From Candidatus Sumerlaeota bacterium (GTDB lineage Bacteria; Bacillota; SLNR01): a DNA stretch of 64,000 nt. The DNA lies in NCBI GenBank assembly GCA_007132905.1, contig SLNR01000060.1, positions 1,442 to 65,441 on the forward strand, given 5' to 3'. Below the pieces are notes generated by a model that saw only the letters and a list, made by a program, of their open reading frames with translations, was not told the DNA's origin and did no database searches. A program made the translations under genes and the position numbers. Shown piece by piece: positions 40,072 to 60,282 of the stretch (positions are counted from its first letter, which is position 1; each line of letters opens with the position of its first letter).

Positions 40072-42741
40072 GTGGTTGATAAAAAGACACTTCCGACTGT
40101 TTATGATCCATCGAAAGTAGAAACAAAGTGGTATGATTATTGGGAAGAAAAGAAATTTTTCCATGCCGAGGTAGATCAGAATAAAAAGCCTTACAGCATT
40201 GTGATTCCTCCTCCGAATGTGACAGGATCTCTTCATATGGGACATGCTTTAAACAATACACTGCAGGATATTCTAATTCGCTGGCGGCGCATGAAGGATG
40301 ACAATGTTGTTTGGATTCCCGGTACTGACCATGCCGGAATTGCAACACAGGTAGTAGTTGAGAAAAAGCTTGCGCAGGAAGGTCTAACAAGACACGATTT
40401 AGGCAGGGAAGCTTTTATAGATAAAGTGTGGGAATGGAAAGATAAATACGGCAACACCATTTTAGAACAGTTAAAGCGTTTGGGTGCTTCTTGTGATTGG
40501 GACAGGGAAAGGTTTACCATGGATGAGAGATGCTCGAAGGCTGTTCGCACAGTGTTTATTCATCTCTACGAAAAGGGTTTAATCTATCAAGGAAACTTCA
40601 TCATTAACTGGTGTCCTCGATGTCTGACAGCTTTATCGGATCTTGAAGTTGAATATGAAGAAATCGCAGGACATTTGCATTATGTCAAATACCCCATTGA
40701 AGACAGTCCTACTTTTATTAAAGTAGCCACAACCCGGCCCGAGACTATTCTCGGAGATACTGCTATTGCAGTACATCCCGACGATGAACGCTTTAATGAC
40801 CTTATCGGCAAAACAGCTGTTCTTCCTATCATAGAGAGAAAACTCCCCATTATAGCCGATGAATATGTTGATCCTTCCTTTGGGACGGGAGCTGTAAAAG
40901 TTACACCTGCTCATGACCCAAATGACTTTGCTATCGCGCAGCGGCATGGTCTTGAAAGTGTCACCGTCATCGATGAGCATGGAAGAATGAATGAGAATGC
41001 TGGTAGATACGATGGCATGGATCGATATGAATGCCGAAAGGAAATATTAAATGACCTCCAAGTGTTAGGACTTCTGGCAGAAGTTGAAGATAATCCGCAC
41101 TCTGTAGGACACTGCTCACGCTGCGATGCAGCTGTGGAGCCTTTGTTGTCTCGTCAGTGGTTTGTTCGGATGAAACCCTTGGCCGAACCGGCGATGGAAG
41201 TGGTAGAGAAAGGGACCATCAAATTTGTTCCGGCTAGATTTAAAAATACCTATATGCATTGGTTGGAAAACATTCATGACTGGTGTATTTCCAGGCAGTT
41301 GTGGTGGGGTCATAGAATTCCGGCGTGGTATTGTGATGAATGCCGGCATGTAACAGTGGCAATGGAAGAGCCTGATGTATGCGAAAAATGCGAAAGCGGC
41401 TCGCTTAGACAAGATCAGGATGTTTTAGACACTTGGTTCAGCTCTGCGCTGTGGCCCTTTTCGACCCTGGGATGGCCGGAAAAAACGCCGGAGCTTGAAC
41501 AGTTTTATCCCACAGCTGTTTTGGTTACGGGTTATGATATTATTTTTTTCTGGGTGGCTAGGATGATTTTTATGGGTTTAGAATTCATGGATGAAATTCC
41601 TTTTCACGAGGTTTTTATCAATGGGTTGATTCGGGATGCAGAAGGAAAAAAGATGAGCAAATCTCGCGGCAACACCATGGATCCTTTGGAAATAATCGAG
41701 GAATACGGAACTGATACTTTAAGATATACCTTGGTTACAGGGAGTTCTCCTGGCAGTGATATCCGCCTATTTACTGAAAAATTTGAGGGCATCCGAAATT
41801 TCGCCAATAAGATTTGGAATGCGTCCCGTTTTGTTATGATGAATCTTGATGAAGATGAGGCATATACGGAAATAGACCTGACATCATCAGATCTGGCCCT
41901 TTCTGATAGATGGATTTTAAGCAGAAGCCAAGAGGTTCTCAAAGAAGTGGACCGGTTGCTGGCGAGATATGATATTGGCGAGGCAGGAAAAACTCTATAT
42001 GATTTTATATGGAGCGAATTCTGTGATTGGTACATCGAGTTGGCTAAGCCTAGGTTAAATGATCCCCAGCAGCCACAGGATAGAAAACAAGTGCAGCATA
42101 TTTTGTGGCATGTGCTGAAGGGAACAATGGAAATGATGCACCCATTCATGCCTTTTATCACAGAAGAGATCTGGCAGCACCTTCCTCATGAGGGAGATAC
42201 CATTATGTATGCGGCCTGGCCCGAGGTAAAGGAAGAACTAATCGATGAACAAGCAGTCAAAAAAATGAATCTTTTAATGGAGATTGTTCGAATTATCAGG
42301 AATATTCGAGTCGAAATGAATGTGAAGCCGGCTCAAAAAGTGGATGCTATTTTACAGTGCAGTGACCCCGAGGCGCAAATGACAATCGGCGAAAATCAAT
42401 CTTTGCTTGAAAAAATTGCCGGATTATCATCTTTTGTTGTCGAAGACGCTAGTCGACAGAAACCAAAACAAGCTATGTCGGGTATAGTCGAAGGGGTAGA
42501 GGTTTTTGTTCCTCTGCAAGGATTAATAGATCCGGATAAAGAGATTTCCCGGCTCAACAAAGAGCTAAGCACGGCTCTAAAGGAACTCGAGAAAGTGGAA
42601 AAGAAATTAGTTGACCAGGAATTTATCCAAAAAGCGCCTAGTCACATAGTGGAAAAGGAAAAAAGTAAGCAGAGCGAGTTTAAAGAAAAAGCCGAAAAAA
42701 CGCAAGAACGCATCAAGCAGCTAAAAGAGCTGAAAAAGTGA
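40072..42741 (+). CDS. valS: valine--tRNA ligase
   Basis: HIGH-type PPNVTGSLHMGH, KMSKS, and a C-terminal coiled coil; 889 aa. GTG lies 7 nt after AGGAGG. Confidence 0.97.
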   Translation: MVDKKTLPTVYDPSKVETKWYDYWEEKKFFHAEVDQNKKPYSIVIPPPNVTGSLHMGHALNNTLQDILIRWRRMKDDNVVWIPGTDHAGIATQVVVEKKLAQEGLTRHDLGREAFIDKVWEWKDKYGNTILEQLKRLGASCDWDRERFTMDERCSKAVRTVFIHLYEKGLIYQGNFIINWCPRCLTALSDLEVEYEEIAGHLHYVKYPIEDSPTFIKVATTRPETILGDTAIAVHPDDERFNDLIGKTAVLPIIERKLPIIADEYVDPSFGTGAVKVTPAHDPNDFAIAQRHGLESVTVIDEHGRMNENAGRYDGMDRYECRKEILNDLQVLGLLAEVEDNPHSVGHCSRCDAAVEPLLSRQWFVRMKPLAEPAMEVVEKGTIKFVPARFKNTYMHWLENIHDWCISRQLWWGHRIPAWYCDECRHVTVAMEEPDVCEKCESGSLRQDQDVLDTWFSSALWPFSTLGWPEKTPELEQFYPTAVLVTGYDIIFFWVARMIFMGLEFMDEIPFHEVFINGLIRDAEGKKMSKSRGNTMDPLEIIEEYGTDTLRYTLVTGSSPGSDIRLFTEKFEGIRNFANKIWNASRFVMMNLDEDEAYTEIDLTSSDLALSDRWILSRSQEVLKEVDRLLARYDIGEAGKTLYDFIWSEFCDWYIELAKPRLNDPQQPQDRKQVQHILWHVLKGTMEMMHPFMPFITEEIWQHLPHEGDTIMYAAWPEVKEELIDEQAVKKMNLLMEIVRIIRNIRVEMNVKPAQKVDAILQCSDPEAQMTIGENQSLLEKIAGLSSFVVEDASRQKPKQAMSGIVEGVEVFVPLQGLIDPDKEISRLNKELSTALKELEKVEKKLVDQEFIQKAPSHIVEKEKSKQSEFKEKAEKTQERIKQLKELKK

Positions 42742-42763
42742 AGCATATATGCTTCACTTTTTT
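42738..42763 (+). terminator. intrinsic terminator after valS
   Basis: GTGAAGCAT/ATGCTTCAC palindrome followed by T6. Confidence 0.8.
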
Positions 42764-42842
42764 ACTAAATGGGTAAGTTGCAAAAGAAGGAAGTAATTTT
42801 TTTGTAACGAATACAAATGGCAGCTCGATAGGAGGAGTCGGG

Positions 42843-44150
42843 ATGGATTATCTTGAGGCGATGTCGTATTTAAAAAGCCTCCAGAAATTCGGCATACAAC
42901 TGGGATTAAAGAGAATGGAATCTCTTCTTAAAAAGATGGGGAATCCGCAAGAGAACCTATCCTGTCTTCATATTGCCGGGACAAACGGCAAGGGGTCTGT
43001 AGCTGCAATGATTGCGTCTATGTGCGGTGCGGCCGGATGGAAAACAGGCTTATTTACTTCCCCGGCTTTGCAACGATTTAATGAAAGGATCAAGATCAAT
43101 GGGTTGATGATCCAAGACCATCAAATAGCCGACATCCTCACCGGGATTCATCCTTTAGTGGGAGAAGTCGAAAAAGAAGGCGAACAGCCTACCGAGTTTG
43201 AAGTGGTCACGGCGGCTGCTTTTGAATATTTTCATCGAAAGGGAGTGGATTTAGCTGTTTTTGAAGTAGGACTGGGAGGCCGGCTTGATTCTACCAATGT
43301 GATCAAAGCACCTCTGGTTTCTGTTATCACTACTGTCGGGCTGGACCATACCCAGATACTTGGGCACACAATTGAGCAAATCGCCGGGGAGAAAGCTGGC
43401 ATCATTAAAGAAAAAGGCGATGTGGTCAGCGGAGTGAAGAATCAAGAAGCCAGAAGCGTGATTGAGAAAAAGTGCAAAGAGCAGTTGGCGTCTCTTTTTC
43501 AAATCAATGAGCATATAAAAGGGGTGCTGCTTAGATATGAAGAAAAAGGGCAGTACATCGCCATCGAGACAGACAGAAAATATTACGACGAATTGTATTT
43601 ACCGTTGCTTGGCAGTCACCAATTGGATAACGCGTTGCTGGCTGTTAAGGCAGTCGAATTGATCAGCCAAAAAGGTTTTACAGTCACCAAAGAGACCGTG
43701 AGAAAGGGCCTGGCGTCTGTATGTTGGCCTGGCCGCATGGAGATAATGCAAAAGAACCCGACCGTGATCATCGATGGGGCGCACAATTTAGACGGAGCAA
43801 GAGCATTGAAAAAGGGACTTGAAGATTTGTATCCCGAAAAAAGCATCTTCTTTGTGCTCGGCATCTTAGAAGATAAAAATTGGCCGGGCATGATTGAGGT
43901 ATTGATGTCTATGGCGAGTCAGGCAGTAGCAGTGAGTCCTACCAATGTAAGAGCTTTGGATTCTCATGATTTGCAAAAGGAAATCAAACGGCACGACAGG
44001 GAGGCCAAAGCTTACTCTTCTGTGCAAAGCGGGATTGAAGCAGCGTTGGCAGAGGCAAAACCGGATGAAGTCATTTGCATTGCCGGTTCTTTGAGCACGG
44101 CCGCCGAAGCCAAGTCTTTTTTTGAGAAGGAAAAGGGAAAAATGAAATAG
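42843..44150 (+). CDS. folC: folylpolyglutamate synthase / dihydrofolate synthase
   Basis: P-loop HIAGTNGKGS, Mur-ligase pattern DGAHN, and the usual position after valS. Confidence 0.9.
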   Translation: MDYLEAMSYLKSLQKFGIQLGLKRMESLLKKMGNPQENLSCLHIAGTNGKGSVAAMIASMCGAAGWKTGLFTSPALQRFNERIKINGLMIQDHQIADILTGIHPLVGEVEKEGEQPTEFEVVTAAAFEYFHRKGVDLAVFEVGLGGRLDSTNVIKAPLVSVITTVGLDHTQILGHTIEQIAGEKAGIIKEKGDVVSGVKNQEARSVIEKKCKEQLASLFQINEHIKGVLLRYEEKGQYIAIETDRKYYDELYLPLLGSHQLDNALLAVKAVELISQKGFTVTKETVRKGLASVCWPGRMEIMQKNPTVIIDGAHNLDGARALKKGLEDLYPEKSIFFVLGILEDKNWPGMIEVLMSMASQAVAVSPTNVRALDSHDLQKEIKRHDREAKAYSSVQSGIEAALAEAKPDEVICIAGSLSTAAEAKSFFEKEKGKMK

Positions 44151-44396
44151 ATCTTGGGCTTGGGTATATGCAATAATTCTGGCATAAAGCAAGCTTTTCA
44201 AGCAGCGATATTTGACTGAAAATTACATTATTTCATATTGAGAGACAAAATTCAGTCTTTTTCCTTCTCTTTTGATAGTTCCTCTGTTATAATAACAGGT
44301 GTTGCTAGAAATAGAGAACATAAGATTTTGCTTTTGCAGGAAAACCTGCATGAACGACCATAACATGAGTAAAGAATTTACAAGGAGGCGGTTTCT

Positions 44397-44756
44397 GTGC
44401 CCCTAACTATTGCCGAGATAAAGGACTTGCTGGGTGCAGAGGTTCTAACAGAGAATATTGATTTAAACCGGCCGATTTTGGCAGCTTGCGCTTGCGATTT
44501 ACTTAGTGATCTTTTGGCTTTTTCCCGCGAGCAGTCGGTTCTTCTAACCGGTCTGGTAAACCCTCAGGTAATCAGAACAGCAGAAATGATTGATTTATCG
44601 GGCATTGTTTTTGTAAGAGGCAAAAAACCGCCGGCTGGGGTCATAGATTTAGCGAAAAACCTTGAAATTATATTAATGACTACAGAAAAAACGATGTTTG
44701 AGTGCAGCGGCATTCTCTACACTGCTGGATTGGAAGCGACTTTTGTAGAAAGATAG
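44397..44756 (+). CDS. DRTGG-domain protein
   Basis: 119 aa with ...DLLSDLL...LLTGL... and a C-terminal fold signature shared with the paralogue at 46594. GTG start after AGGAGG. Confidence 0.65.
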   Translation: MPLTIAEIKDLLGAEVLTENIDLNRPILAACACDLLSDLLAFSREQSVLLTGLVNPQVIRTAEMIDLSGIVFVRGKKPPAGVIDLAKNLEIILMTTEKTMFECSGILYTAGLEATFVER

Positions 44757-44787
44757 ACTTACCTAAACTTAAAGCGGGGGTAAGGGT

Positions 44788-45228
44788 ATGGACAAACAGC
44801 AGGACAAGAATTCAGAAATAAAGGTATCTTTTAATATAGAAGGAAAAGATTTCAATGCTGCCGGGGAGGCCTCAAGCAGAATCAAGTCGATTCTTCAGCA
44901 ATTGGGGATCCGTTCTGCTATATGCCGGCGGACTGCCATAGTGGCGTATGAAGCGGAAATGAATATCGTAATTCATGCTGAAAAAGGAAAGATGACTCTG
45001 CAGGTACATCCGGATAGCATTGAATTAAAAGTTGAGGACGAAGGACCCGGGATTGACGATCTGGAAGAAGTTATGGTCGAGGGATTCTCTACTGCTCCGG
45101 ATTATATTCGCGAGATGGGTTTTGGAGCAGGTATGGGATTGCCTAATATTAAACGTTCTTCAGATGAATTTCATATTGAATCCGAAGTGGACAAAGGAGT
45201 TTCCTTGTGGGTGAAGATTTATTTATAG
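44788..45228 (+). CDS. GHKL-ATPase-only protein, anti-sigma-factor/Ser-kinase-like (RsbW/SpoIIAB type)
   Basis: 146 aa; N-box AYEAEMNIVIHA and G-boxes EDEGPGI and GFGAGMGLPNI. No HisKA or sensor domain. Confidence 0.7.
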   Translation: MDKQQDKNSEIKVSFNIEGKDFNAAGEASSRIKSILQQLGIRSAICRRTAIVAYEAEMNIVIHAEKGKMTLQVHPDSIELKVEDEGPGIDDLEEVMVEGFSTAPDYIREMGFGAGMGLPNIKRSSDEFHIESEVDKGVSLWVKIYL

Positions 45229-45254
45229 AGTCCTGAGGAAAGCGGTGAACACAA

Positions 45255-46607
45255 ATGGATGAGAGGTATTTCCATTCCGTTCGACTAGAAGAGGACAAAT
45301 GCAAAGGTTGTACCGTATGCATTAAGGGATGTCCAACAGAGGCAATCCGCGTCAGGGACGGGCAGGCGAATATCATTGAAGAACGTTGCATCGACTGCGG
45401 CGAATGCATTCGGCAATGCCCAAACCATGCCAAGATTGCCGTGGCAGACTCCCTTGATGATCTTAAAAAATATAAATACAATGTGGCTTTGCCGGCGCCA
45501 ACCTTTATGGGGCAGTTTCGGCCGGATGTTCCTCCGGAGAAGATTTTAGGGGCATTGATTTATTTAGGTTTTGATGAAGTCTTCGAAGTTGCGCAGGCAG
45601 CGGATTATGTGTCGGCTGCCATTCGCGAGTATCTAAAAAAAGAAAACCTGCCGAAGCCGCTGATATCTTCGGCTTGTCCGGCAGTGGTGCGTCTGATTCA
45701 AGTCAGATTTCCGGATTTGATTCCCCATATAATCCCTTTGGAAACACCAATGGAGATTGGGGCCAAACTGGCGAAAGCAAAAATCGAAAAGGATAAAGGG
45801 TTACCAAAAGAAGACATAGGGGTCTTTTTCATCACTCCTTGTCCGGCTAAGGTAACAGCGGTGAAAGAACCAGTTGCTATGCAGGAGTCGAATGTGGATG
45901 GGGTCATTCCCATCGATGATATTTATGGAGAGATTTTAAAGGCTATTCCCCATGTCGGCAAAGAGAGCGAAAGTCAAGCAACAGGAGCCGGACTGGGCTG
46001 GGCCCGGGCCGGTGGTGAAAACACGGCAGTAGGTCTGGAAGAGGGATATTTGTCGGTGGACGGCATTCAAAATGTGATCAATGTGCTGGAAGAAGTGGAG
46101 ATGGGTAAACTTGATGATGTGGTTTATCTGGAATGTTTGTCTTGTCCGGGAGGTTGTATTGCAGGTCCTTTGACGGTGGAAAATAAATTTATCTCACGAG
46201 TAAGAATAGGGAAACTGGCGGATAAGCAAAAAAAACCCTTTGAGCCGGAAGATGATTTGGATCAGTTGATTGAAGAAGGCTTCTTTTCCGGCCAAGAAAA
46301 GATTACGCCCCGCCCCATTATGCAGCTAGATTCAGATATATCAAAAGCCATCAAACTCATGGCAGAACTAGAAACGACACTGGAAGACCTGCCCGGAATT
46401 GACTGCGGTTCCTGTGGGGCACCGACCTGTCGAGCTTTGGCGGAAGATATTGTAAAAGGATTGGCCCTGGAAACAGACTGCGTTATCAAATTGCGCGAGA
46501 AAGTACATGAGCTTGCAAAAGAGATGCTAGATCTCTCCGAGAAGGTTCCTCATGCGATGGGGAAAAAGTCAAACGGTAATCGAGGTGGAAAAGATGAAGT
46601 TGAATGA
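45255..46607 (+). CDS. sensory-type [FeFe]-hydrogenase homologue (group C/D-like, HydS-like)
   Basis: Two N-terminal CxxCxxCxxxCP motifs. H-cluster motifs are present but altered: SSACP (45666-45680) for TSCCP, TPCPAK for MPCxxK, ECLSCPGGCIAG for ExMxCxxGCxxG. An extra C-terminal Cx2Cx4Cx16C lies at 46404-46481. Confidence 0.8.
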   Translation: MDERYFHSVRLEEDKCKGCTVCIKGCPTEAIRVRDGQANIIEERCIDCGECIRQCPNHAKIAVADSLDDLKKYKYNVALPAPTFMGQFRPDVPPEKILGALIYLGFDEVFEVAQAADYVSAAIREYLKKENLPKPLISSACPAVVRLIQVRFPDLIPHIIPLETPMEIGAKLAKAKIEKDKGLPKEDIGVFFITPCPAKVTAVKEPVAMQESNVDGVIPIDDIYGEILKAIPHVGKESESQATGAGLGWARAGGENTAVGLEEGYLSVDGIQNVINVLEEVEMGKLDDVVYLECLSCPGGCIAGPLTVENKFISRVRIGKLADKQKKPFEPEDDLDQLIEEGFFSGQEKITPRPIMQLDSDISKAIKLMAELETTLEDLPGIDCGSCGAPTCRALAEDIVKGLALETDCVIKLREKVHELAKEMLDLSEKVPHAMGKKSNGNRGGKDEVE

Positions 46608-46932
46608 TGTGAAAGACGCTTTGAACTTAAAAACAGAAAGCGGAGAAGAGTTACTAAACAGGGAAATTAAAGGGGGTTATACATCCGACCTTTTAAGCGA
46701 TGTGATGGCAAATGCCAGCGAAGGAGATATATGGATTACACTGCAGACACACCAAAATGTGGTGGCGGTGGCGTCTCTGCTGGGATTAAGCGCGGTGATC
46801 ATTACCGGGGGATCAAAACCGGAAGACAACACCTTGGAAAAAGCAAAAAAAGCCGAAGTGCCAATATTGTCATCGCAACTACCATCCTTTGAATTAAGCG
46901 GAAAAGCATACGCAATTATTGGATCTGATTAA
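46594..46932 (+). CDS. DRTGG-domain protein (second copy)
   Basis: GYTSDLLSDVM...VIITGG is paralogous to 44397-44756. ATG 46594 follows GAGGTGG and overlaps the preceding stop by 14 nt. Confidence 0.65.
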   Translation: MKLNDVKDALNLKTESGEELLNREIKGGYTSDLLSDVMANASEGDIWITLQTHQNVVAVASLLGLSAVIITGGSKPEDNTLEKAKKAEVPILSSQLPSFELSGKAYAIIGSD

Positions 46933-46935
46933 GCT

Positions 46936-47679
46936 ATGCTATCCCGGTATTTCATCGATTTTCATATTCATACCGCGTTATCTCCCTGCGCGGACAATCA
47001 GATGACTCCCAAGAGAATTATCGAGGCGGCTGTTTCACATGAACTCCATATTATTGCGATTACCGATCATAATTCAGCTGAAAATGTACCAGCTCTTTTG
47101 AAGGCGGCGGAACATCAGCCAGTGACGGTAATCCCGGGTATGGAGGTTCAGACACGTGAGGAAGTCCATCTTGTTTGTCTTTTCCCTGGGGTGAAAGAAA
47201 TTATGGTCTGGCAGCATTTTGTTTACGAAAGATTACCGGACAGAAAAAACCGGGAGGATTATTTTGGAGAGCAATGGGTCTTTGATGAAAATGGAAAACC
47301 CTTGGAAAAATGTGACCGATTATTAATTGCGTCGACCTCGCTGGGTTTAGAAGAGACAGTAGAGAAATGTCAAGAGTACGGAGGGATTTGTTATCCCGCT
47401 CACGTGGACAGGTCGAACAACAGCATCATCAGCAACCTTGGCTTTATCCCGGAAAAGCCCGTTTTCCCGGCGGTGGAAATATCCCCTATGATAAAGTCAG
47501 AGGACGCTCTTAAACGATTTCCTTATCTGGAAAAATATACTTTGATCGGCTCCTCGGATGCACATCAATTAGAAGAGATCCTTTGGGCCCGGTCAGAAAT
47601 ACATATAGAAAATCCGGTATTTTCAGAGATAGCATTGGCACTAGAAGGAGAAAAACAAAGAAAGGCGGTGACAATCTGA
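46936..47679 (+). CDS. PHP-domain phosphoesterase
   Basis: DFHIHT, AITDHNS and further His/Asp ligands (YPAHVD, SSDAH); 247 aa. Confidence 0.75.
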   Translation: MLSRYFIDFHIHTALSPCADNQMTPKRIIEAAVSHELHIIAITDHNSAENVPALLKAAEHQPVTVIPGMEVQTREEVHLVCLFPGVKEIMVWQHFVYERLPDRKNREDYFGEQWVFDENGKPLEKCDRLLIASTSLGLEETVEKCQEYGGICYPAHVDRSNNSIISNLGFIPEKPVFPAVEISPMIKSEDALKRFPYLEKYTLIGSSDAHQLEEILWARSEIHIENPVFSEIALALEGEKQRKAVTI

Positions 47680-47754: not shown

Positions 47755-48246
47755 ATGGCAGAATGCAGTTGTGCCGATTGCGGTATCACCGAAGAGATGT
47801 ACCAGCAGTTGGATGAAACCATTGAAAAGCAAAAGGGTCAGGCAGGTGCTTTGATTCAGGTTCTCCATAAAGCCCAAGAAATTTTTGGTTATCTGCCTAA
47901 AGAAGTTCAAGTGTATGTGGCGGATAAATTGGATGTTCCTGTCACCGAGGTTTATGGTGTGGTTACTTTCTATGCATTTTTCTCAATGACCCCAAAAGGG
48001 AAGCATTCCATCGGTATCTGTATGGGAACGGCATGCTATGTTAAAGGAGCGGGCCAGATATTGGATTCATTGAAGGCCAAGTTGAAAGTGGATGTAGGTG
48101 GAACCACTGAAGATGGATTGTTCACATTAGAAGTGCTTCGCTGCATCGGAGCCTGCGGTCTGGCTCCGGCGGTTATGATTGGTGACGATGTGTACGGAAG
48201 GTTAACCTCAGATAAAGTTGATGATATTTTGGCCAAATACCAATAA
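47755..48246 (+). CDS. hydC: NuoE-like [2Fe-2S] subunit of multimeric [FeFe] hydrogenase (set 1)
   Basis: Cys pattern ICMGTAC...C..ACGLAP, typical of NuoE/HydC; 163 aa. Confidence 0.85.
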   Translation: MAECSCADCGITEEMYQQLDETIEKQKGQAGALIQVLHKAQEIFGYLPKEVQVYVADKLDVPVTEVYGVVTFYAFFSMTPKGKHSIGICMGTACYVKGAGQILDSLKAKLKVDVGGTTEDGLFTLEVLRCIGACGLAPAVMIGDDVYGRLTSDKVDDILAKYQ

Positions 48247-48262: not shown

Positions 48263-48817
48263 ATGCGCGAATTATCACTGCATATTTTGGACATTGTGCA
48301 AAACTCCATAGAAGCGGGTGCGAGTGAGGTTATACTTGAAATTAATGAAGATCCGGATTCCGATCTGTTCGAGATGATCATACGGGATAATGGTAGGGGT
48401 ATGACGCCGGAAATGGTCCAGGGCGTTACAGATCCCTTTGTGACAACAAGAACCACTCGTAAGGTCGGGCTGGGTATTCCGCTGTTTCACAGTGCAGCCG
48501 AGCAGGCAGGTGGGGATCTTGTTGTTGATTCTGAAGTGGGAAAAGGAACAACCATAAGAGCCAATTTTTCGCACAAACATATTGATCGGGCTCCCCTCGG
48601 AGATATGGTAGGTACCATATTAGCTTTGTTAGGGTCCAATCCGCGCATGGAATTGGTCTATCGGCATCGATACAAAGATAAAGAGTTTGAGTTTAGAACC
48701 GAAGACATCAGGGAAACATTAGAGGATATTGAGATCAGTCACCCCATGATCCTCGGCTGGATTCGCAATCATTTGCAAGATGGTTTGGCAGAAATCTACG
48801 GAGGTGAGAGAGAGTGA
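48263..48817 (+). CDS. GHKL-ATPase-only protein embedded in hydrogenase set 1
   Basis: LHILDIVQNSIEAGA (N-box), RDNGRGM and GLGIP (G-boxes). No H-box or sensor domain. Its stop overlaps the next start (GTGA, 48814-48817). Confidence 0.7.
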   Translation: MRELSLHILDIVQNSIEAGASEVILEINEDPDSDLFEMIIRDNGRGMTPEMVQGVTDPFVTTRTTRKVGLGIPLFHSAAEQAGGDLVVDSEVGKGTTIRANFSHKHIDRAPLGDMVGTILALLGSNPRMELVYRHRYKDKEFEFRTEDIRETLEDIEISHPMILGWIRNHLQDGLAEIYGGERE

Positions 48818-49176
48818 AAACGCTAAAAGAGCTTGAAGAACTTCGAAAAAAAGCGCAGGAATCGACTCGTCTGCGCGAAGGCGATAAAGGAAGTAAAATT
48901 GTGATTGGCATGGGTACCTGCGGGATCGCGGCAGGAGCAAGAGAAGTGATGGCGGCTGTTATGGACGAAATAAATAAGCGAGACATCGATGATGTAGTGG
49001 TCACTCAAACAGGTTGTGTTGGGGTATGCGAGCAAGAACCGATCGTCGAAGTAATGCGACCTGGGCAGGAAAAAGTGACTTACGGACGTATCGATGAAGA
49101 GAAAGCGAGAAAAATCATTGCCCAGCATATAGTCAATGGACAAATCGTTGGAGATTGGGTTATTTCCACATCGTAA
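48814..49176 (+). CDS. thioredoxin-like [2Fe-2S] ferredoxin (HydD-like, set 1)
   Basis: GMGTCGIAAG...TGCVGVCEQEP; 120 aa; about 75-80 percent identical by eye to 53015-53380. Confidence 0.8.
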   Translation: MKTLKELEELRKKAQESTRLREGDKGSKIVIGMGTCGIAAGAREVMAAVMDEINKRDIDDVVVTQTGCVGVCEQEPIVEVMRPGQEKVTYGRIDEEKARKIIAQHIVNGQIVGDWVISTS

Positions 49177-49257: not shown

Positions 49258-51051
49258 ATGGAAAGGATTCGTTCCCAGGTTTTGGTCTGCGCCGGTGCAG
49301 GATGTATATCCTCAGGCTGCAAAGCGGTCCAAAGTGCGTTACTGGATGAACTGAAAAATCTTGGCATTGATGAAGAAGTAAAAGTAGTGGAGACAGGCTG
49401 TATGGGCCCCTGTGATCTAGGGCCGATTGTAGTTGTGTATCCTGAAGGGATCTTCTACTCCCAGCTGACACCCGAAGATGCTCGAGAAATTGCAAGAGAA
49501 CATCTTAACAAGGGTAGAATCGTACAACGTCTTCTTTACCAAGTTCCCGGAGAAGAGGCTCCTTCTCAAGAGCGGGAAGATATCGGATTTTTTGAAAGGC
49601 AGACACGAATCGCTCTGCGCAATACAGGGTCGATCGATCCGGATATTATCGAAGAATACATAGCTCGCAATGGTTATGTAGCGATGGGTAAAGCATTATC
49701 GGAAATGAAGCCGGAAGAAGTCGTGGATACAGTGAAAAAATCAGGCCTGCGCGGAAGGGGCGGCGGCGGATTTCCCGCGGGCCTCAAATGGGAGTTTACT
49801 GCCAAAGCGCAGGGATCTCCAAAATACATTGTTTGTAATGCGGACGAAGGCGATCCGGGTGCTTTTATGGATCGAAGTGTTTTAGAAGGAGACCCACACA
49901 GCATTATTGAATCAATGGTGATCGCCGGCTACGCAGTAGGATCAAACCAGGGTTATGTGTATGTTCGTGCCGAGTATCCATTGGCCATCCGGCGTTTGGA
50001 TCATGCGATCAATCAGGCTCGTGATTTTGGATTGTTAGGAGAAAACATTTTCGGTTCCGGATTTAATTTTGACATGGAGATTCGAATAGGAGCCGGAGCT
50101 TTTGTCTGCGGAGAAGAGACAGCTTTGCTTCGTTCTATTGAAGGCAAACGAGGCGAGCCAACTCCAAAACCACCTTTCCCGGCTAATCAGGGGCTGTGGG
50201 GTAAACCAACCCTGATTAACAATGTGGAAACGTTTGCTAATATCCCGCCCATTATCGAAAAGGGTTGGGAATGGTTTAGTGAAATTGGTACTGAAAAGAG
50301 TAAAGGAACAAAGGTATTTGCACTGGCAGGAAAAGTGGCCACCTCCGGTTTGGTCGAGGTAGCCATGGGAACCACTCTTCGTGAAGTGGTGTATGATCTA
50401 GGCGGAGGAATTCCCGGCGGGAAAGCTTTTAAGGCTGCACAGACAGGCGGCCCTTCCGGTGGATGTCTGACAGCGAAGCATCTTGATACTCCGATGGATT
50501 ATGAATCGTTAATCTCAGCAGGCTCAATGATGGGCTCAGGCGGACTCATCGTTATGGATGAGGATACCTGCATGGTGGATGTAGCCAAGTTTTTCCTTGA
50601 GTTTACCGTAGATGAATCATGCGGTAAGTGTCCTCCTTGTCGTATCGGGACAAAAAGAATGCATGAAATCCTTACCCGAATCACCGAGGGAGAAGGGCAA
50701 GACGGCGATTTAGAGAAATTAGAAGCTTTGGCCGTGACCGTAAGAAATGCATCGTTGTGCGGTCTGGGCCAAACGGCGCCGAACCCTGTATTAAGTACCA
50801 TCCAATATTTTAGAGATGAGTACGAAGCTCACATTCAGGACAAGAAATGTCCGACAGGAATCTGTCAAGCGCTGATTACCTACCGGGTGATTGACGATAA
50901 ATGCATCGGATGTGGTATGTGCGCGCGGGTTTGCCCTGTTGATGCTGTATCGGGGAGCCAAAAAGAAGTGCACAGCATTGATCCTAAAACATGCATTAAA
51001 TGCGGTGCCTGTTTGGAAAAATGTCCCGTGGATGCTATTGAGAAAGTTTAA
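49258..51051 (+). CDS. hydB: NuoF-like flavoprotein subunit with N-terminal [2Fe-2S] and C-terminal 2x[4Fe-4S] domains (set 1)
   Basis: [15 protein letters not shown] (FMN/NADH site), [10 protein letters not shown] (N3 cluster), C-terminal [12 protein letters not shown] and [12 protein letters not shown]. Confidence 0.9.
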
Positions 51052-51111: not shown

Positions 51112-52851
51112 ATGTCAACGGTAACACTAACCATTGACGGTCGTGAGATTCAGGCCGAACAAGGTGATACTGTGCTGGAGACCGCTAAAAAAGCCGGAAT
51201 TCATATCCCCACATTATGTTATCTCGAAGAGATAAATGAAATAGGTGCTTGTCGTGTATGCGTGGTTGAAGTTGAAGGAGGAAAAGCGCTGCAGACTGCC
51301 TGTACTACGCCGGTTGCAGAAGGAATGAAGATTAAAACAGCTTCTCCGGCTGTAAGACATGCACGAAAGATCGTGGTGGAACTGCTTTTATCCGATCATC
51401 CTAGCGACTGCCTAAAATGCATTCGCAATCAAAATTGCGAGTTGCAGTCATTAGCGGATGATCTTGGAATCCGCGAGATTCATTATGAGGGAGAAAGAAA
51501 CCAAAGGCCCATTGACGATTTAAGTGCTTCAGTGGTGAGAGACCCGGAAAAATGCATCAACTGCCGTCGGTGCATTTCGACCTGCAACGATGTTCAGAAT
51601 GTCTACGCTTATGCAATGGCGGAACGGGGATTTAAAAGCACGGTTACTCCCGTTTTTGAAGAGCCTCTGAGTGAAGTAGCCTGCACCAACTGCGGGCAGT
51701 GCATTTTGGCTTGCCCTACCGGTGCTTTGCACGAAAAAGACGAAACCGAAAAAGTTTGGGAGGCCTTGGCCGATCCCGAAAAGCATGTAGTAGTGCAAAC
51801 GGCGCCTTCGGCCCGGGTATCTATCGGTGAAGAGGTAGGCATGGAGCCCGGGTCACTGGTCACGGGTAAATTAGTAGCGGCTTTGCGCAGAATCGGATTC
51901 GATAGGGTGTTTGATACGGATTTCACGGCGGATCTGACCATTTTAGAAGAAGGTCATGAATTCCTTCAAAGATTGGAAGAAGGCGGGACACTCCCGATGA
52001 TCACCTCTTGCAGCCCGGGTTGGGTAAAGTACATCGAACACTTCTATCCCGATTATTTGGATCATCTCTCTACGGCCAAATCACCTCAGCAGATGTTTGG
52101 CACGCTGGCAAAAACATTCTATGCCGAGGAAGCCGGGATTGACCCGAAAAATATTGTCTCTGTATCCATTATGCCTTGTACGGCCAAAAAGTTCGAAGCA
52201 AATCGACCCGAGATGGACGACAGCGAATTTCAAGATGTGGATGTGGTATTGACAAATAGAGAATTAGGTAGAATGTTCAGGGAAGCGGGTGTAAAATTCG
52301 AACCCCTGCCGGACGAGGAATACGATAATCCCTTGGGGATTTCAACAGGAGCCGGACTTATCTTTGGTTCGTCCGGGGGCGTGATGGAAGCAGCTTTGAG
52401 AACGGTTTATGAGGTACTGACGGGCGAGACCCTGGAAAAACTTGATTTTGAAGGGGTGAGAGGTCTTGAGGGAATTAAGGAATGTTCCGTCCTGGTGGGT
52501 GACCTTGAGGTGAAAGTTGCAGTGGCCAACGGACTCGGCAACGCTCACAAGCTGATGGAGTTGATCAGCGAAGGGAAAGCTGATTATCATTTCATAGAGA
52601 TCATGGCTTGTCCGGGCGGGTGCATAGGTGGCGGCGGCCAACCGATTCCGACCAATCAGGAAATCAAAGAGAAAAGGATGGCAGCTATTTACAGCGGTGA
52701 CAAAGGCATGAAAATCAGAAAATCTCACGAAAGTCCAGCCATCAAAGAAATCTATGAGAAATTTCTCGGAGAACCTATCGGGGAAAAATCACATAAATTG
52801 CTGCATACACTTTACACAAAGAGAAGCAAGTTTCCCAAGCTTGAAGAATAA
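51112..52851 (+). CDS. hydA: [FeFe] hydrogenase catalytic subunit, M3 architecture (set 1)
   Basis: N-terminal [2Fe-2S] and [4Fe-4S] domains. H-domain motifs TSCSPGW, MPCTAKKFE and EIMACPGGCIGGGGQP. Confidence 0.92.
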   Translation: MSTVTLTIDGREIQAEQGDTVLETAKKAGIHIPTLCYLEEINEIGACRVCVVEVEGGKALQTACTTPVAEGMKIKTASPAVRHARKIVVELLLSDHPSDCLKCIRNQNCELQSLADDLGIREIHYEGERNQRPIDDLSASVVRDPEKCINCRRCISTCNDVQNVYAYAMAERGFKSTVTPVFEEPLSEVACTNCGQCILACPTGALHEKDETEKVWEALADPEKHVVVQTAPSARVSIGEEVGMEPGSLVTGKLVAALRRIGFDRVFDTDFTADLTILEEGHEFLQRLEEGGTLPMITSCSPGWVKYIEHFYPDYLDHLSTAKSPQQMFGTLAKTFYAEEAGIDPKNIVSVSIMPCTAKKFEANRPEMDDSEFQDVDVVLTNRELGRMFREAGVKFEPLPDEEYDNPLGISTGAGLIFGSSGGVMEAALRTVYEVLTGETLEKLDFEGVRGLEGIKECSVLVGDLEVKVAVANGLGNAHKLMELISEGKADYHFIEIMACPGGCIGGGGQPIPTNQEIKEKRMAAIYSGDKGMKIRKSHESPAIKEIYEKFLGEPIGEKSHKLLHTLYTKRSKFPKLEE

Positions 52852-52866
52852 AACTATATAGCAAGT

Positions 52867-52894
52867 AAAAGGGTGGGATGTATCCTGCCCTTTT
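52867..52894 (+). terminator. hairpin plus T-run after hydA (set 1)
   Basis: GGGTGGGAT/ATCCTGCCC (two G-U pairs) followed by TTTT. Confidence 0.55.
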
Positions 52895-53014
52895 GCATAA
52901 GTGAAATAAACTGAAAATTCCCATTAATCGAATATCGGAAGGGAAAAATGCGATTGTGGCGAATCTTTTAGAAAAATATAAAGGAAGGCCTGTCGTTTTG
53001 AGGAGGTGAAAATA

Positions 53015-53380
53015 ATGAAAACCCTAAAGGATTTAGAAGAACTCAGAAAAAAGGCGCAGGAATCGACTCGCTTAAGAGAAAGCAGCGAGGGCACAAAAAT
53101 AGTTGTGGGGATGGGCACTTGCGGTATTGCGGCCGGGGCACGGGATACAATGTCCGCGGTGATGGACGAAATCTCCAAAAGAGACATAGAAGATGTTTCC
53201 ATAACACAAACAGGTTGTGTGGGCATGTGTGAGCAAGAACCTATTGTAGAAGTGGCTCGCCCCGGCCTGCCCAAGGTAACTTACGGGCATATCGATGCCG
53301 AAAAAGCCAGGAAAATCATTGCCCAGCATATTGTTAATGGACAGATTGTCGGCGAATGGGTAATTTCAACCCAAGATTAA
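53015..53380 (+). CDS. thioredoxin-like [2Fe-2S] ferredoxin (HydD-like, set 2)
   Basis: Paralogue of 48814-49176. ATG 53015 lies 8 nt after AGGAGG and gives the matching N-terminus MKTLKDLEEL. Confidence 0.8.
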   Translation: MKTLKDLEELRKKAQESTRLRESSEGTKIVVGMGTCGIAAGARDTMSAVMDEISKRDIEDVSITQTGCVGMCEQEPIVEVARPGLPKVTYGHIDAEKARKIIAQHIVNGQIVGEWVISTQD

Positions 53381-53404
53381 GGAAGGATAGAGGAGGTGAG
53401 TCAT

Positions 53405-53902
53405 ATGGCAGTGACTGAACAACAAGGAACCGAAAGAGATGATGTGAACATGGAGGCGGTAGAAAAAATTATCGCTAAATACAAGAATAGAGTGGGGGAT
53501 CTGCTGCCGGTTTTGCATGAGGTTCAAGAGGAAACGAAATATCTCTCAGAAGATGTATTAGCCGTCGTGGCAGAAAAGATGGACGTCCCGTTGAGCAAAG
53601 TATACGGCGTGGCTACTTTTTATTCTCTTTTCACTGTGAAGCCAAAGGGCGAATACATTATACGTGTGTGTGAAAGCGCTCCCTGCCATATTGTCGGAGC
53701 GCAAGATGTATATGATGCCCTAGAGGAGGAACTGGGTATCAAAGCGGGAGAAAATACGTCCGATGGCAAATTTACTCTGGAATTTGCCAGCTGCATTGGC
53801 GTCTGCGGGGTGGCCCCGGCCATTATGATCAACGAGGAGGTCTATGGCAATCTCACGCCTGAAATGATCCCCGGAATCCTTGATAAATATAGGAAAGAGT
53901 AG
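53405..53902 (+). CDS. hydC: NuoE-like [2Fe-2S] subunit (set 2)
   Basis: VCESAPCH...CIGVCGVAP. ATG 53405 lies 8 nt after AGGAGG. Confidence 0.85.
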   Translation: MAVTEQQGTERDDVNMEAVEKIIAKYKNRVGDLLPVLHEVQEETKYLSEDVLAVVAEKMDVPLSKVYGVATFYSLFTVKPKGEYIIRVCESAPCHIVGAQDVYDALEEELGIKAGENTSDGKFTLEFASCIGVCGVAPAIMINEEVYGNLTPEMIPGILDKYRKE

Positions 53903-53938
53903 ATAAGCGGCTAAGAATCGAGAAAGGGAGGGGTAAGT

Positions 53939-55567
53939 ATGGAATTCTACCGCTCGCACATTTTGGTTTGTGCCGGGACGAACTGTGTACTAAACGGCAG
54001 TAAAATGGTAGAACGAGCTTTCAATAAGGAACTGGAAAAGCGTGATCTTGACAAAGAAATAAAGATTGTCGAAACCGGATGCTTTGGCATCTGCGACCAC
54101 GGTCCTACGATCGTCATCTATCCCGAAGGAGTACTTTATTGTAGGGTGAAAGAAGAAGACGTGCAGGAAATCGTGGAAGAACATATTGTTAAGGGCCGCA
54201 TTGTCGACCGGCTCCTTTATAGAGAAGAGATTGTGCCGAAAGCTAGACAGACGGTACGGGAAGTTGACTATTTTAAAAAACAAGAACGTATCGTTTTGCG
54301 AAATTGCGGAATTATTGATCCGGAGAGCATTGAGGAGTATATTTCCCGCAACGGATACGAAGCACTCGGCAAATGCCTGTCAGAACTTAGCAGAGACGAG
54401 ATTATTGAAGAGATAAAAGAATCAGGTCTTCGCGGCCGGGGAGGAGCCGGATTTCCCACGGGCTTGAAATGGGAGTTTACTAAAAAAGCAGAAGGCGATC
54501 AGAAATATGTGATTTGCAATGCCGATGAAGGGGAACCGGGTACCTTCAAAGACCGACTTATCTTGGAGGGAGATCCCCACAGTGTTATAGAGGCCATGAC
54601 CATTGCCGGTTATGTGATCGGTTCGAATAAAGGAATAGTATATTTGCGAGGGGAATATTCGCTTTCTCTGGAAAGACTGAAACAGGCGACAGATCAAGCC
54701 AGAGAATATGGTCTCTTAGGTGAAAATATATTCGGGACTGAATTTAGTTTTGATATAGAAATAAGAGAGGGCGCCGGTGCGTATGTCTGCGGAGAAGAGA
54801 CAGCTTTAATTGAGTCCATTGAAGGAGACAGAGGTGAACCTCGCTACAAACCTCCTTATCCCACGAACCAGGGATTATGGGGAAAGCCGACGCTGGTTAA
54901 TAATGTAGAAACATTAGCAAACATCTCTCCGATCATCCTGCAGGGTGGCTGCTGGTTTAAGGCCATCGGAACAGAAAACTGCCCGGGCACAAAAGTGTTT
55001 ACCATGACAGGAGATATCAACAATAAAGGGCTTATCGAAGTACCTATGGGAATCACTTTGCGGGAAGTCATCTATGAGATCGGTGGAGGCCTTCCCGGCG
55101 GCAAGAAATTCAAGATGGCACAGACGGGAGGAACCTCCGGAGGATGTATTCCGGCTGAGTATTTAGATTTGCCAATGGATTATGATACTTTGGCTGATGC
55201 CGGAACAGCGTTGGGATCGGGAGCTTTGTTGATTATGGATGAAACCCATTGTATTGTTGACATCACAAAATGTTTCATGCAATTTTTTAAACATGAATCA
55301 TGCGGTAAATGTACCCCCTGTCGGGAAGGCACACTGCGCATGAAGCAGCTCCTTGATAAAATCTCCAGGGGTGAAGGGGAGCAAAATGATATCAAAGTGA
55401 TTGAAGCCTTATCGCGCACAATGATATCTTCTGCTTTATGCGGTCTTGGGCAGGCGGCCCCCAATCCGGTTATGACGACGCTGAAATTCTATCGCGATGA
55501 ATATGATGCTCATATAAATAACCGGACCTGTCCAACCGGTGGGTGCGAGCTTGTACAGCAAGCATAA
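53939..55567 (+). CDS. hydB: NuoF-like flavoprotein subunit lacking the C-terminal 2x[4Fe-4S] domain (set 2)
   Basis: GRGGAGFPTGLKWEF and ESCGKCTPCR are present. It ends at ...CPTGGCELVQQA, where the set-1 paralogue continues for about 65 aa. Confidence 0.9.
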   Translation: MEFYRSHILVCAGTNCVLNGSKMVERAFNKELEKRDLDKEIKIVETGCFGICDHGPTIVIYPEGVLYCRVKEEDVQEIVEEHIVKGRIVDRLLYREEIVPKARQTVREVDYFKKQERIVLRNCGIIDPESIEEYISRNGYEALGKCLSELSRDEIIEEIKESGLRGRGGAGFPTGLKWEFTKKAEGDQKYVICNADEGEPGTFKDRLILEGDPHSVIEAMTIAGYVIGSNKGIVYLRGEYSLSLERLKQATDQAREYGLLGENIFGTEFSFDIEIREGAGAYVCGEETALIESIEGDRGEPRYKPPYPTNQGLWGKPTLVNNVETLANISPIILQGGCWFKAIGTENCPGTKVFTMTGDINNKGLIEVPMGITLREVIYEIGGGLPGGKKFKMAQTGGTSGGCIPAEYLDLPMDYDTLADAGTALGSGALLIMDETHCIVDITKCFMQFFKHESCGKCTPCREGTLRMKQLLDKISRGEGEQNDIKVIEALSRTMISSALCGLGQAAPNPVMTTLKFYRDEYDAHINNRTCPTGGCELVQQA

Positions 55568-55599
55568 CTGAAGAAATTTGAGCAAAGGAGTGTAGATAG

Positions 55600-57366: not shown

Positions 57367-57406
57367 TTACGGAATCAGGATAATACGGATGAATATTTTC
57401 TTTTTA

Positions 57407-57415
57407 TGCTATAAT
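57407..57415 (+). promoter_or_regulatory. extended -10 element TGcTATAAT ahead of the DUF4321-maf-radC-mre genes
   Basis: Read directly. The -35 region (GGATGA) is weak. Confidence 0.4.
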
Positions 57416-57475
57416 AAGGCTATGCAAATAAGTCTCATTATGAATGAGAGCTGTTTGGAAGGAGAAGGTAGCCAA

Positions 57476-57721
57476 ATGAAGAAAGTGCAAGGAGGGATGG
57501 TTCTTTTTCTTTATCTGCTAGTCGGTGGATTCATCGGCAGTGTATTGGGAGAGGTGTTAAGTTCTGTGATTCCCATTTTAAAAGAAGGCATTTCCCTGGG
57601 ATTAAACCCTCCGGCTCAGCTAAATCTTTGGTTTTTAGGGATTACTTTCGGGTTTTATATTAAACTTAACCTGGCCGGTGCTTTGGGTATGGCCGTTGCG
57701 CTTGTCTCTTGGCGGAGATAG
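57476..57721 (+). CDS. DUF4321-type small membrane protein
   Basis: 81 aa; GGFIGSVLGEVL...GFYIKLNLAGALG; typical position in front of maf in Clostridia. ATG after GGAGAAGG. Confidence 0.65.
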   Translation: MKKVQGGMVLFLYLLVGGFIGSVLGEVLSSVIPILKEGISLGLNPPAQLNLWFLGITFGFYIKLNLAGALGMAVALVSWRR

Positions 57722-57810
57722 TTTTTTACACAAGGCAGGTTTTTAGAAAACGGTAGTTGAGCTATACTGATATGCGGGCAGGAATAGAACTTAAAATCGG
57801 GGTGTGGTCA

Positions 57811-59225: not shown

Positions 59226-59238
59226 AGGAGGAAACAAG

Positions 59239-60273: not shown

Positions 60274-60282
60274 ACAGAGGGC

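Follow-up and report, generated by a model that had tools for sequence, protein, structure and literature searches.

A DRTGG/GHKL/PHP gene cassette with an interchangeable sensor beside NuoE/NuoF-type oxidoreductase operons, tentatively read as an ATP-dependent control system

The window analysed here, a stretch of 64,000 nucleotides (nt) of contig SLNR01000060.1 from a Candidatus Sumerlaeota bacterium, contains a hydrogenase operon that opens with five small genes. The third of them encodes HydS, a putative sensory [FeFe] hydrogenase; around it stand two DRTGG proteins (D1 and D2), a SpoIIAB-like GHKL ATPase (K) and a PHP-family phosphoesterase (P), and a sixth gene, for the second GHKL ATPase K2, lies among the downstream hydrogenase genes. 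Our preferred reading, which we offer tentatively and well aware that it may fail, is that D1, K, an interchangeable sensor, D2, P and K2 form a six-part cassette joined to oxidoreductase operons of the NuoE/NuoF (HydABC/Bfu) type, and that this cassette exerts ATP-dependent, non-transcriptional control over the adjacent NuoEF enzyme, with HydS as the H2 input. The gene content, the conservation of catalytic residues, the fusions, the swapping of the sensor and the co-occurrence with NuoEF enzymes are directly established. It is also tempting to suppose, although we consider this more doubtful, that an undescribed cassette of many phyla gates NuoE/NuoF bifurcating enzymes after transcription, at the level of enzyme or mRNA, by means of plug-in sensors: HydS for H2, CBS pairs for adenine nucleotides and possibly Fe-S/CCG proteins for thiol or redox state.

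The conservation of the cassette was followed from two sides. We fetched 80 genome loci with a group D homologue of HydS (46–56% identity), which belong to Clostridia, Negativicutes, Armatimonadota, Spirochaetes, Atribacterota, WOR-3 and other groups. Components were scored by profile hidden Markov models built from the window proteins and counted over the loci with enough flanking sequence. K was present in 71 of 74 HydS loci, D1 in 68 of 74, D2 in 65 of 75 and P in 63 of 75, and HydC, K2, HndB, HydB and HydA followed downstream in 38–44 of 64. D2 and P come and go as a pair; four loci (L033, L043, L063 and L065) have D1-K-HydS without either. All told, about 130 independent loci spread over many phyla share this gene order, more than chance would give. 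A search centred on P yielded 134 unique P loci, with HydS between K and D2 in 96. Fifteen loci, mostly from Chloroflexota, encode D1, CBS-CBS-K, D2, P and K2 and no HydS; nine others, Syntrophales and Nitrospirota included, encode D1-K-D2-P-K2 with a short K, again without HydS. The motifs DLMSD, DLLS[DC], HxHTxLSPC and GFGAGMG are kept in all HydS-less variants.

The partner enzymes of the two kinds of loci differ. Where the catalytic subunit could be classed, loci with HydS had a true HydA in 48 cases and a non-hydrogenase partner in 7, and loci with K and without HydS had a true HydA in 2 and a non-hydrogenase partner in 9 (Fisher p = 1.3e-5, uncorrected for phylogeny); the non-hydrogenase partners are formate-dehydrogenase/NuoG-like or HdrA-like NuoEF enzymes. 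Because the cassette also occurs without HydS, and then mostly with non-hydrogenase partners, HydS behaves as an interchangeable H2 input rather than as the core of the system, and the constant neighbour is the NuoE/HndB/NuoF module. An earlier note on this DNA had described an H2-sensing module with HydS as its central protein; the existence of D1-K-D2-P-K2 cassettes speaks against HydS as the core. The same note had drawn the boundary of the module after its fifth gene and left K2 out. This boundary has to be moved: several organisms carry K2 fused to P, and of 119 unique P-carrying loci 101 have K2. Moreover, K2 tracks NuoF: both occur in 95 loci, neither in 14, and 10 loci are discordant.

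Two further arrangements deserve a separate comment. In a HydS-less Anaerolineae locus (L083, 4708–7768), genes for a DRTGG protein, a K2-type ATPase, a Fer4+CCG (HdrD/GlpC-like) protein of 399 amino acids (aa) and a PHP protein follow one another; the Fe-S/CCG protein, standing at the position of HydS, may be another plug-in sensor. In L081 (83–5011 and 9436–10221), a cassette with a P-K2 fusion is divergent from an operon of NuoE, HndB, NuoF and a formate-dehydrogenase-like subunit; the cassette is followed by a small soluble HisKA+HATPase_c protein of 261 aa.

Gene fusions tie the members of the cassette together. HydS-D2 fusions of about 515–573 aa were found in nine proteins (P0013, P0017, P0025, P0029, P0041, P0056, P0096, P0103 and P0120) as well as in at least 8 more representatives of clusters at 50% identity, the appended C-terminal domain being clearly orthologous to D2. 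D1-K fusions of about 270 aa occur in L001, L002 and L008, P-K2 fusions of about 430 aa in several organisms, and CBS-CBS-K fusions in HydS-less cassettes. Over its full length, K2 is 47–52% identical to the C-terminal half of the PHP-GHKL fusions P0139, P0146, P0147, P0170, P0174 and P0216. Two short proteins, P0372 (214 aa) and P0441 (195 aa), consist only of the PF04060 Fe-S domain and a D2-like DRTGG domain; they represent either a stand-alone unit or truncated metagenomic gene calls.

As judged from its sequence, HydS fits the group D (M2e) sensory type: the four H-cluster cysteines are kept, the relay cysteine and both methionines are replaced, a C-terminal cluster motif is added, and a PAS domain is lacking. 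Pfam assigned Fe_hyd_lg_C, two Fer4 domains (residues 9–59) and PF04060 (379–410) and gave no PAS match. We checked the motifs against the Desulfovibrio hydrogenase (DdH) in the PDB, both wild type and C178A, and against 20 homologues. Residues C141, C196, C297 and C301 correspond to the ligands of DdH in the alignment and do not vary among the 20 homologues, nor does the C-terminal motif C384x2C387x4C392x16C409. Alanine occupies the position of the proton-relay cysteine (C299 of CpI) in SSAC141P, threonine that of M353 in TPC196 and leucine that of M497 in ECLSC297. All of these motifs had been listed in the earlier note, which had also called the protein a sensory-type hydrogenase, and in both respects it was right. 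HydS is 51–56% identical to proteins of Thermoanaerobacterium and Thermoanaerobacterales in the same synteny, and the NCBIfam model for group B1 scores it at 147 bits against a cut-off of 450 bits. Hydrogenases of the M2e/group D type are classed as putative sensors because they adjoin protein kinases and stand upstream of trimeric bifurcating hydrogenases, as in the gene clusters of Cthe_0335, Athe_1292, Csac_1857, TTE0887 and Teth39_1463. TamHydS of Thermoanaerobacter mathranii has been characterised spectroscopically; it turns over H2 slowly and has serine and leucine at the two methionine positions.

One might therefore ask whether HydS is simply an extra catalytic hydrogenase and its small neighbours are unrelated passengers. 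The four H-cluster cysteines and both N-terminal clusters are kept, and the slow turnover of TamHydS would agree with such a role. Nevertheless, the loss of the relay cysteine and of both flanking methionines, together with the fusions and the strict cross-phyla synteny with K, D1, D2 and P, makes this explanation very improbable.

The best PDB match of K is the anti-sigma F factor 1til (E = 2.7e-7, equal length), so that the RsbW-like ATPase of the earlier note is borne out; the model TIGR01925 gives 45.5 bits, below its equivalog cut-off of 135 bits. Residues E55, N59, H63, D84xGxG88 and G111FGAGMGL118 are 97–100% conserved in 73 orthologues, and since the N-box, G1 and G2 motifs are invariant, K very probably binds ATP. 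The ATP-binding motifs of K2 and the metal site of P are invariant as well, and the enzymes of the cassette thus look functional.

D2 matches Pfam DRTGG (PF07085) at 32.6 bits, above the threshold of 25.2 bits, and D1 at 19.3 bits, below it. Profile-profile comparison with hhalign aligned D1 and D2 over their full length (probability 99.85%, E = 1e-30), and D1 is, by this comparison, a clear paralogue of D2. In D1, the invariant residues are D34-L-x-S37-D38, T51 and R74-G-K76-x-P78; in D2, they are D32-L-L-S35, W47, N55 and A84. The motif DL(L/M)S is invariant in both proteins, and its serine is a candidate functional residue. D2 also gave weak matches to the regulatory CBS-DRTGG-CBS region of pyrophosphatase models.

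The naming of these small proteins in public records calls for caution. Exact-sequence look-ups returned D1 and D2 orthologues as "DRTGG domain-containing protein", "predicted transcriptional regulator" or "putative transcriptional regulator containing CBS domains"; D2 of Christensenella hongkongensis (L054, 11323–11661) is named "AraC family transcriptional regulator", and Thermoanaerobacterium D1/D2 clusters are likewise among the misleadingly named DRTGG records. The orthologues so named are single-domain proteins of 109–117 aa without a helix-turn-helix (HTH) domain. An AraC regulator has been reported to adjoin TamHydS. Keeping these records in mind, this regulator is most likely D2, a misnamed DRTGG protein, and the only published link to transcription would then drop out. 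Misleading DRTGG names are a likely source of error in published statements on gene context.

The kinship of K with anti-sigma factors brings forward a classical partner switch with transcriptional output, in which K would hold or free an unlinked sigma factor or regulator, the DRTGG proteins would replace STAS, and P would replace PP2C. Not only is the closest solved relative of K the anti-sigma F factor SpoIIAB, but public sources name K orthologues anti-sigma regulatory factor or RsbT. In addition, the group C operon hfsABCD includes the serine phosphatase homologue HfsC. This phosphatase is of PP2C type and is paired with a SpoIIAB-like kinase. Further points in favour are Rex genes, found directly upstream as 5 of 145 neighbours, and a Rex box that the literature predicts before the PHP gene Tsac_1856 of Thermoanaerobacterium saccharolyticum.

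The search for a transcriptional partner spoke against such an output. No recurring STAS, sigma or HTH family was found among about 145 upstream neighbours (80 loci; 25 commonest families), which are heterogeneous and include SPOR, folC, valS and ABC transporters. Pfam gave no STAS match in the ten operon proteins, and there is no PP2C, sigma factor or DNA-binding output in the window module, nor any conserved sigma, STAS, PP2C or HTH gene in the neighbourhood of about 130 loci. What the earlier note had said of the module alone, namely that it has no STAS, sigma or DNA-binding partner, thus extends to its relatives. No Rex box lies near the window module, and the reported AraC regulator is most likely the D2 protein of 112 aa, which has no HTH. 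Finally, in a Syntrophomonadaceae metagenome-assembled genome (MAG; L082, 2356–6039 and 7181–16664), the genes directly upstream of a full group D cassette, whose HydS and D2 are fused, encode a sigma-54 response regulator and a HydS-PAS-HisKA-HATPase protein of group C1, so that both types of H2 sensor stand on one hydrogenase operon. There, a separate, sigma-54-linked sensor already supplies the transcriptional H2 output, and such a layout suggests that the two sensor types have different outputs. Taken together, these data lead us to consider a transcriptional partner switch unlikely.

The other arm of the proposed system consists of P and K2. In P, the metal ligands H10, H12, H45, E70, H78, H156, D208 and H210 are invariant, and so is C18. 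The AlphaFold2 model has a predicted local distance difference test (pLDDT) score of 97, and all of its top folds are PHP. Foldseek placed EndoQ (5zb8/7k30) first, with template modelling (TM) scores of 0.72–0.74 and E = 3e-14, followed by TM0559, RNase AM, a pAp phosphatase and polymerase PHP domains, the exonuclease domain of PolC among them. Protein phosphatases of the CpsB/YwqE type and histidinol phosphatase were absent from the 39 Foldseek hits of the model at E <= 1e-3; CpsB/YwqE-type enzymes were also missing from the sequence hits, where the RNase AM/RNM and pAp phosphatase families appeared. The modelled fold of P resembles nucleic-acid or nucleotide phosphodiesterases (EndoQ, RNase AM) and not a protein phosphatase, and a phosphatase role finds no support in it. 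Of the kinase/phosphatase partner switching envisaged in the earlier note, the assignment of K to the SpoIIAB/RsbW type holds, and the phosphatase becomes doubtful. Cys18 lies in the first PHP metal-binding motif (HxHTxLSPC) and is kept in all cassette variants, those without HydS included; aligned RNase AM-type PHP sequences read HSHTTASDG, with aspartate at the position of C18. This cysteine may bind the metal, which would be unusual, or respond to redox conditions.

By its sequence, K2 is a stand-alone CA domain of the histidine-kinase type to which a further domain, some 80 residues long, is added. The matches of its model (pLDDT 86.5) include CA domains of histidine kinases as well as GHKL folds of the MutL/TopoVI-B type, with 170–190 residues aligned to the MutL, PMS2 and TopoVI-B ATPases at a root-mean-square deviation (rmsd) of 5–8 Å. 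Pfam found no HisKA in K2. We also considered K2 as a permuted histidine kinase, on account of an H-box-like HIDRAPLG motif, and rejected the idea, as only 33 of 49 orthologues have His106. With a CA domain, no DHp/HisKA and no conserved histidine, K2 would not qualify as a two-component histidine kinase.

These likenesses invite the supposition that P and K2 form an ATP-gated PHP nuclease or 5'-phosphodiesterase, which, in answer to the sensor, would trim or cleave hyd mRNA, another RNA or a nucleotide signal and thereby exert post-transcriptional control. The Foldseek ranking of P, with EndoQ ahead of RNase AM and the PolC domain, is in line with this, as are its sequence matches to RNase AM/RNM and pAp phosphatases, the P-K2 fusions and the alignment of K2 with MutL, PMS2 and TopoVI-B ATPases, which partner nucleases. 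On the other hand, P comprises the PHP core only (247 aa versus about 400 in EndoQ), and the TM score normalised to the target is 0.46; the sequence of K2 is closest to histidine-kinase CA domains, its long structural alignments have the high rmsd given above, and Pfam detected no RNA- or DNA-binding domain in the cassette. Weighing both sides, we regard a nuclease arm as quite unlikely.

A role outside signalling also has to be weighed, namely ATP-dependent assembly, activation or repair of NuoEF-type Fe-S flavoenzymes, with HydS as a low-rate source of electrons from H2 for reductive activation. It would explain why the cassette follows NuoE/NuoF whatever the catalytic subunit is (hydrogenase, formate-dehydrogenase-like or HdrA-like) and why K2 is embedded between structural genes, and the GHKL superfamily includes the chaperones Hsp90/GRP94, which were seen among the structural matches of K2. 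Such a role is at odds with the specifically SpoIIAB-like character of K, with swappable N-terminal or inserted modules (HydS, CBS pairs) that are typical ligand sensors, with a second hydrogenase set in the window that has neither cassette nor K2, and with stand-alone cassettes that have no adjacent enzyme. We find it improbable.

Returning to non-transcriptional control of the NuoEF enzyme by the cassette, we might depict the following course of events, for which we infer all of the physical contacts, the phospho-acceptor, the substrate of P and the type of output. Binding of H2 at the H-cluster would cause a conformational change in the C-terminal FeS/helix region of HydS. This region would be coupled to D2, to which it is covalently fused in some species, and D2 would pair with its paralogue D1, which is itself tethered to K and in some species fused to it. 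K would then switch in an ATP-dependent manner, phosphorylating Ser/Thr residues or exchanging partners according to the nucleotide state. The switch would set the P-K2 arm, and the arm would execute or reset the output on the NuoE/HndB/NuoF module or its transcript, with no DNA-binding step.

Several observations weigh against this reading. In about 12 loci, D1-K-HydS-D2-P stands without a NuoEF enzyme or K2 in the vicinity, and in L031 and L042 there is K-HydS only; the target, therefore, does not have to be a neighbour. The association of HydS with HydA is confounded by phylogeny, as the HydS-less loci are mostly from Chloroflexota. All of the fusions join neighbouring genes, and so they argue for co-function and compatible stoichiometry, not for any particular interface. 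To our knowledge, purified or solved HydABC complexes consist of HydA, HydB and HydC(D) subunits only, with no K2-like subunit. The modelled fold of P points to a nucleic-acid or nucleotide phosphodiesterase where a phosphoprotein phosphatase would be expected. Lastly, a study of 2026 reported that H2 does not reduce the C-terminal cluster; any signal from HydS to D2, therefore, would not pass through the redox state of that cluster.

Genes after the stand-alone cassettes are unrelated, save for a GGDEF-EAL protein in two related loci. These two, from related Bacillota MAGs (L014, 7954–11037, and L015, 12668–15787), have no hydrogenase or K2, and the cassette is followed by a 7TM-GAF-GGDEF-EAL protein. 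In L017 (4041–11302), K-HydS without D1, D2 and P comes after a Cache-HAMP-GAF-PAS histidine kinase and cheW, a layout which hints that group D HydS is tied to chemotaxis-type signalling in that organism.

The features of the window locus are collected in the table below. The five packed, co-directional genes upstream of the hydrogenase genes lie where the earlier note had put them, down to the gaps and the overlap, and its five domain assignments hold, by Pfam for K, HydS, D2 and P and by the hhalign comparison with D2 for D1. Intergenic spacers measure 31 nt (D1-K), 26 nt (K-HydS) and 3 nt (D2-P), and 75 nt separate P from hydC. The start of D2 is the ATG giving MKLND, which is backed by orthologues (M1 in 96%).

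Table. Features of the sensor cassette and hydrogenase operon (positions in the window)
Feature	Position	Strand	Details
D1 (DRTGG-1)	44397–44756	+	119 aa; GTG start; AGGAGG ribosome-binding site
K (SpoIIAB/RsbW/RsbT-like GHKL ATPase, putative Ser/Thr kinase)	44788–45228	+	146 aa; Pfam HATPase_c, HATPase_c_2
HydS (group D/M2e putative sensory [FeFe] hydrogenase)	45255–46607	+	450 aa; Pfam and motif alignment
D2 (DRTGG-2)	46594–46932	+	112 aa; Pfam DRTGG; 14-nt overlap with hydS end
P (PHP-family metal-dependent phosphoesterase)	46936–47679	+	247 aa; Pfam PHP 43 bits
HydC (NuoE-like [2Fe-2S] subunit of bifurcating hydrogenase)	47755–48246	+	Pfam 2Fe-2S_thioredx 182 bits
K2 (second stand-alone GHKL ATPase)	48263–48817	+	184 aa; Pfam HATPase_c, HATPase_c_3
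HndB/HydD-like thioredoxin-fold [2Fe-2S] protein	48814–49176	+	Pfam 2Fe-2S_thioredx 24.9 bits; 4-nt overlap with K2 end
HydB (NuoF-like, C-terminal 2x[4Fe-4S] domain)	49258–51051	+	Pfam Complex1_51K, NADH_4Fe-4S, Fer4 (residues 543–595)
HydA (catalytic group A [FeFe] hydrogenase)	51112–52851	+	694 bits vs Acetobacterium woodii HydA1 7q4v
Intrinsic-terminator-like hairpin and T run	52865–52896	+	RNA fold -20.9 kcal/mol, z = -5.2 vs shuffles, then UUUU
Candidate extended -10 promoter element TGTTATAAT	44285–44293	+	folC-D1 intergenic; read from sequence

Since the gap between P and hydC has no terminator-like site and a strong hairpin follows hydA, D1-K-HydS-D2-P-HydC-K2-HndB-HydB-HydA most likely form a single ten-gene operon, of which the five genes are the front half. 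The terminator after hydA was spotted by eye and then confirmed by RNA folding. The promoter element TGTTATAAT is kept in the closest relative, L161, and not in L162; consensus scans for promoters and terminators showed no enrichment over shuffled sequence, and the element stays a candidate only. A palindrome of 15 nt, CTGTTATAATAACAG (44284–44298), was considered as an operator and rejected, as it is not kept in the closest relative, where only the TGTTATAAT part is retained. An inverted repeat in the presumed 5' leader, TGCAGGAAAACCTGCA (44331–44346), is near-identical in L161 (TGCAAGAAAACCTGCA) and absent in L162. Control of the operon by Rex was likewise dismissed: with up to 3 mismatches, TTGTTAANNNNTTAACAA has 7 matches in the window against 5.1 expected by chance.

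The downstream genes fit an electron-bifurcating hydrogenase of the HydABC type, as their sequences provide a HydA H-domain, a NuoF-like HydB with 2x[4Fe-4S] and a NuoE-like HydC. HydA scores 669 bits against 8a6t (Electron bifurcating hydrogenase subunit HydA1) as well, A. woodii 7q4v being its closest solved relative. The whole hydrogenase island, about 13 kb long, is flanked by valS-folC and by DUF4321-maf-radC-mreBCD-PBP2 (window positions 40072–44150 and 57389–63487), and it occupies the position after valS-folC in two related metagenomic contigs (L161 and L162) too. The second hydrogenase set (53006–57330; HndB-like, NuoE-like, NuoF-like and HydA) has 59–65% identity to the first and carries neither the sensor cassette nor K2. 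Its NuoF-like subunit (542 aa) is without the C-terminal 2x[4Fe-4S] domain present in the first HydB (597 aa); loss of these clusters is regarded as abolishing bifurcation. Both HydA proteins (the second at 55600–57330) read TSCSP in place of the textbook TSCCP, which we took at first sight for a possible anomaly; 7q4v has the same motif, and it is thus an ordinary known variant.

The route by which HydS signals, left unexplained in the earlier note, was still open in the literature as of 2026, when the interaction partners of group D HydS were described as still to be identified and their identification was called critical. In the open-access literature, we found no paper linking DRTGG or PHP proteins to hydrogenases or Bfu-type enzymes and none treating the cassette; nor do the papers found report a protein-protein contact, a phosphorylation event or an enzymatic activity for its proposed circuit. 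Our comparison names candidate partners, that is, the naturally fused D2, D1-K and P-K2, and makes the question of HydS signalling directly testable. If the wider reading with plug-in sensors is true, the signalling partners of group D HydS are identified, and flavin-based bifurcating enzymes are under dedicated ATP-dependent control. Confirmation would also show how anaerobes match H2 production or uptake, and perhaps their formate metabolism as well, to energy state and product pressure, with a bearing on interspecies hydrogen transfer, on the hydrogen economy of rumen and gut, and on the engineering of biofuel strains such as Thermoanaerobacterium and Clostridium thermocellum, which have the same cassette.

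Finally, we would like to compare the locus with known systems. It represents, in typical form, a gene cluster that has been recognised since about 2010–2012, and it has no essential difference from the TamHydS/M2e clusters: the relay cysteine is lost, M353 is changed to Ser/Thr and M497 to Leu, a C-terminal [4Fe-4S] cluster is present, PAS is absent, and the genes lie upstream of a trimeric bifurcating hydrogenase with kinase-like genes adjoining. To this, our analysis adds the identity of the partners (two DRTGG proteins, PHP and K2), the fusions and the occurrence of the partners without HydS. The group C HfsB/HydS operon, with the gene content of hfs and R. albus, likewise combines a sensory hydrogenase with a phosphoesterase at or near catalytic hydrogenase genes; it differs in having PAS where D2 follows the C-terminal cluster here and in its phosphoesterase of PP2C type, where the window module has PHP, and the window cassette adds two DRTGG proteins and a second GHKL ATPase.

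Outside the hydrogenases, the Bacillus modules SpoIIAA/SpoIIAB/SpoIIE and the RsbR-S-T stressosome with RsbU/RsbX also place a small GHKL Ser kinase directly after a small alpha/beta protein and a phosphoesterase in the operon, but the window module has no STAS, PP2C or sigma factor and belongs to a metabolic-enzyme operon. In CBS-domain family II pyrophosphatases (CBS-DRTGG-CBS), DRTGG is a regulatory, dimerising unit attached to the enzyme. As there, DRTGG and CBS go together as a regulatory unit in the HydS-less cassettes, where CBS-K stands next to DRTGG proteins; in the pyrophosphatases, however, DRTGG is inserted in the regulated enzyme, while here it is separate or fused to the kinase or HydS. 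Endonuclease Q, a lesion-specific endonuclease of the PHP family, is the best structural match of P over the PHP core, and many P orthologues go under the name "PHP family Zn ribbon phosphoesterase" at the Joint Genome Institute (JGI). Nonetheless, P is about 150 residues shorter, consists of the catalytic barrel only, shares 19–20% identity and has the invariant C18; lacking the additional EndoQ domains in its model, it would not qualify as Endonuclease Q. The [NiFe] regulatory hydrogenase HoxBC offers a functional parallel to HydS in one respect, being a low-activity hydrogenase homologue that serves as an H2 sensor for hydrogenase genes. HoxBC works with HoxJ, a PAS histidine kinase, and with the DNA-binding response regulator HoxA, so that metal site, kinase type and DNA-binding output all differ from the window module. 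Overall, the signalling system fits neither the two-component type nor the canonical partner-switching module.

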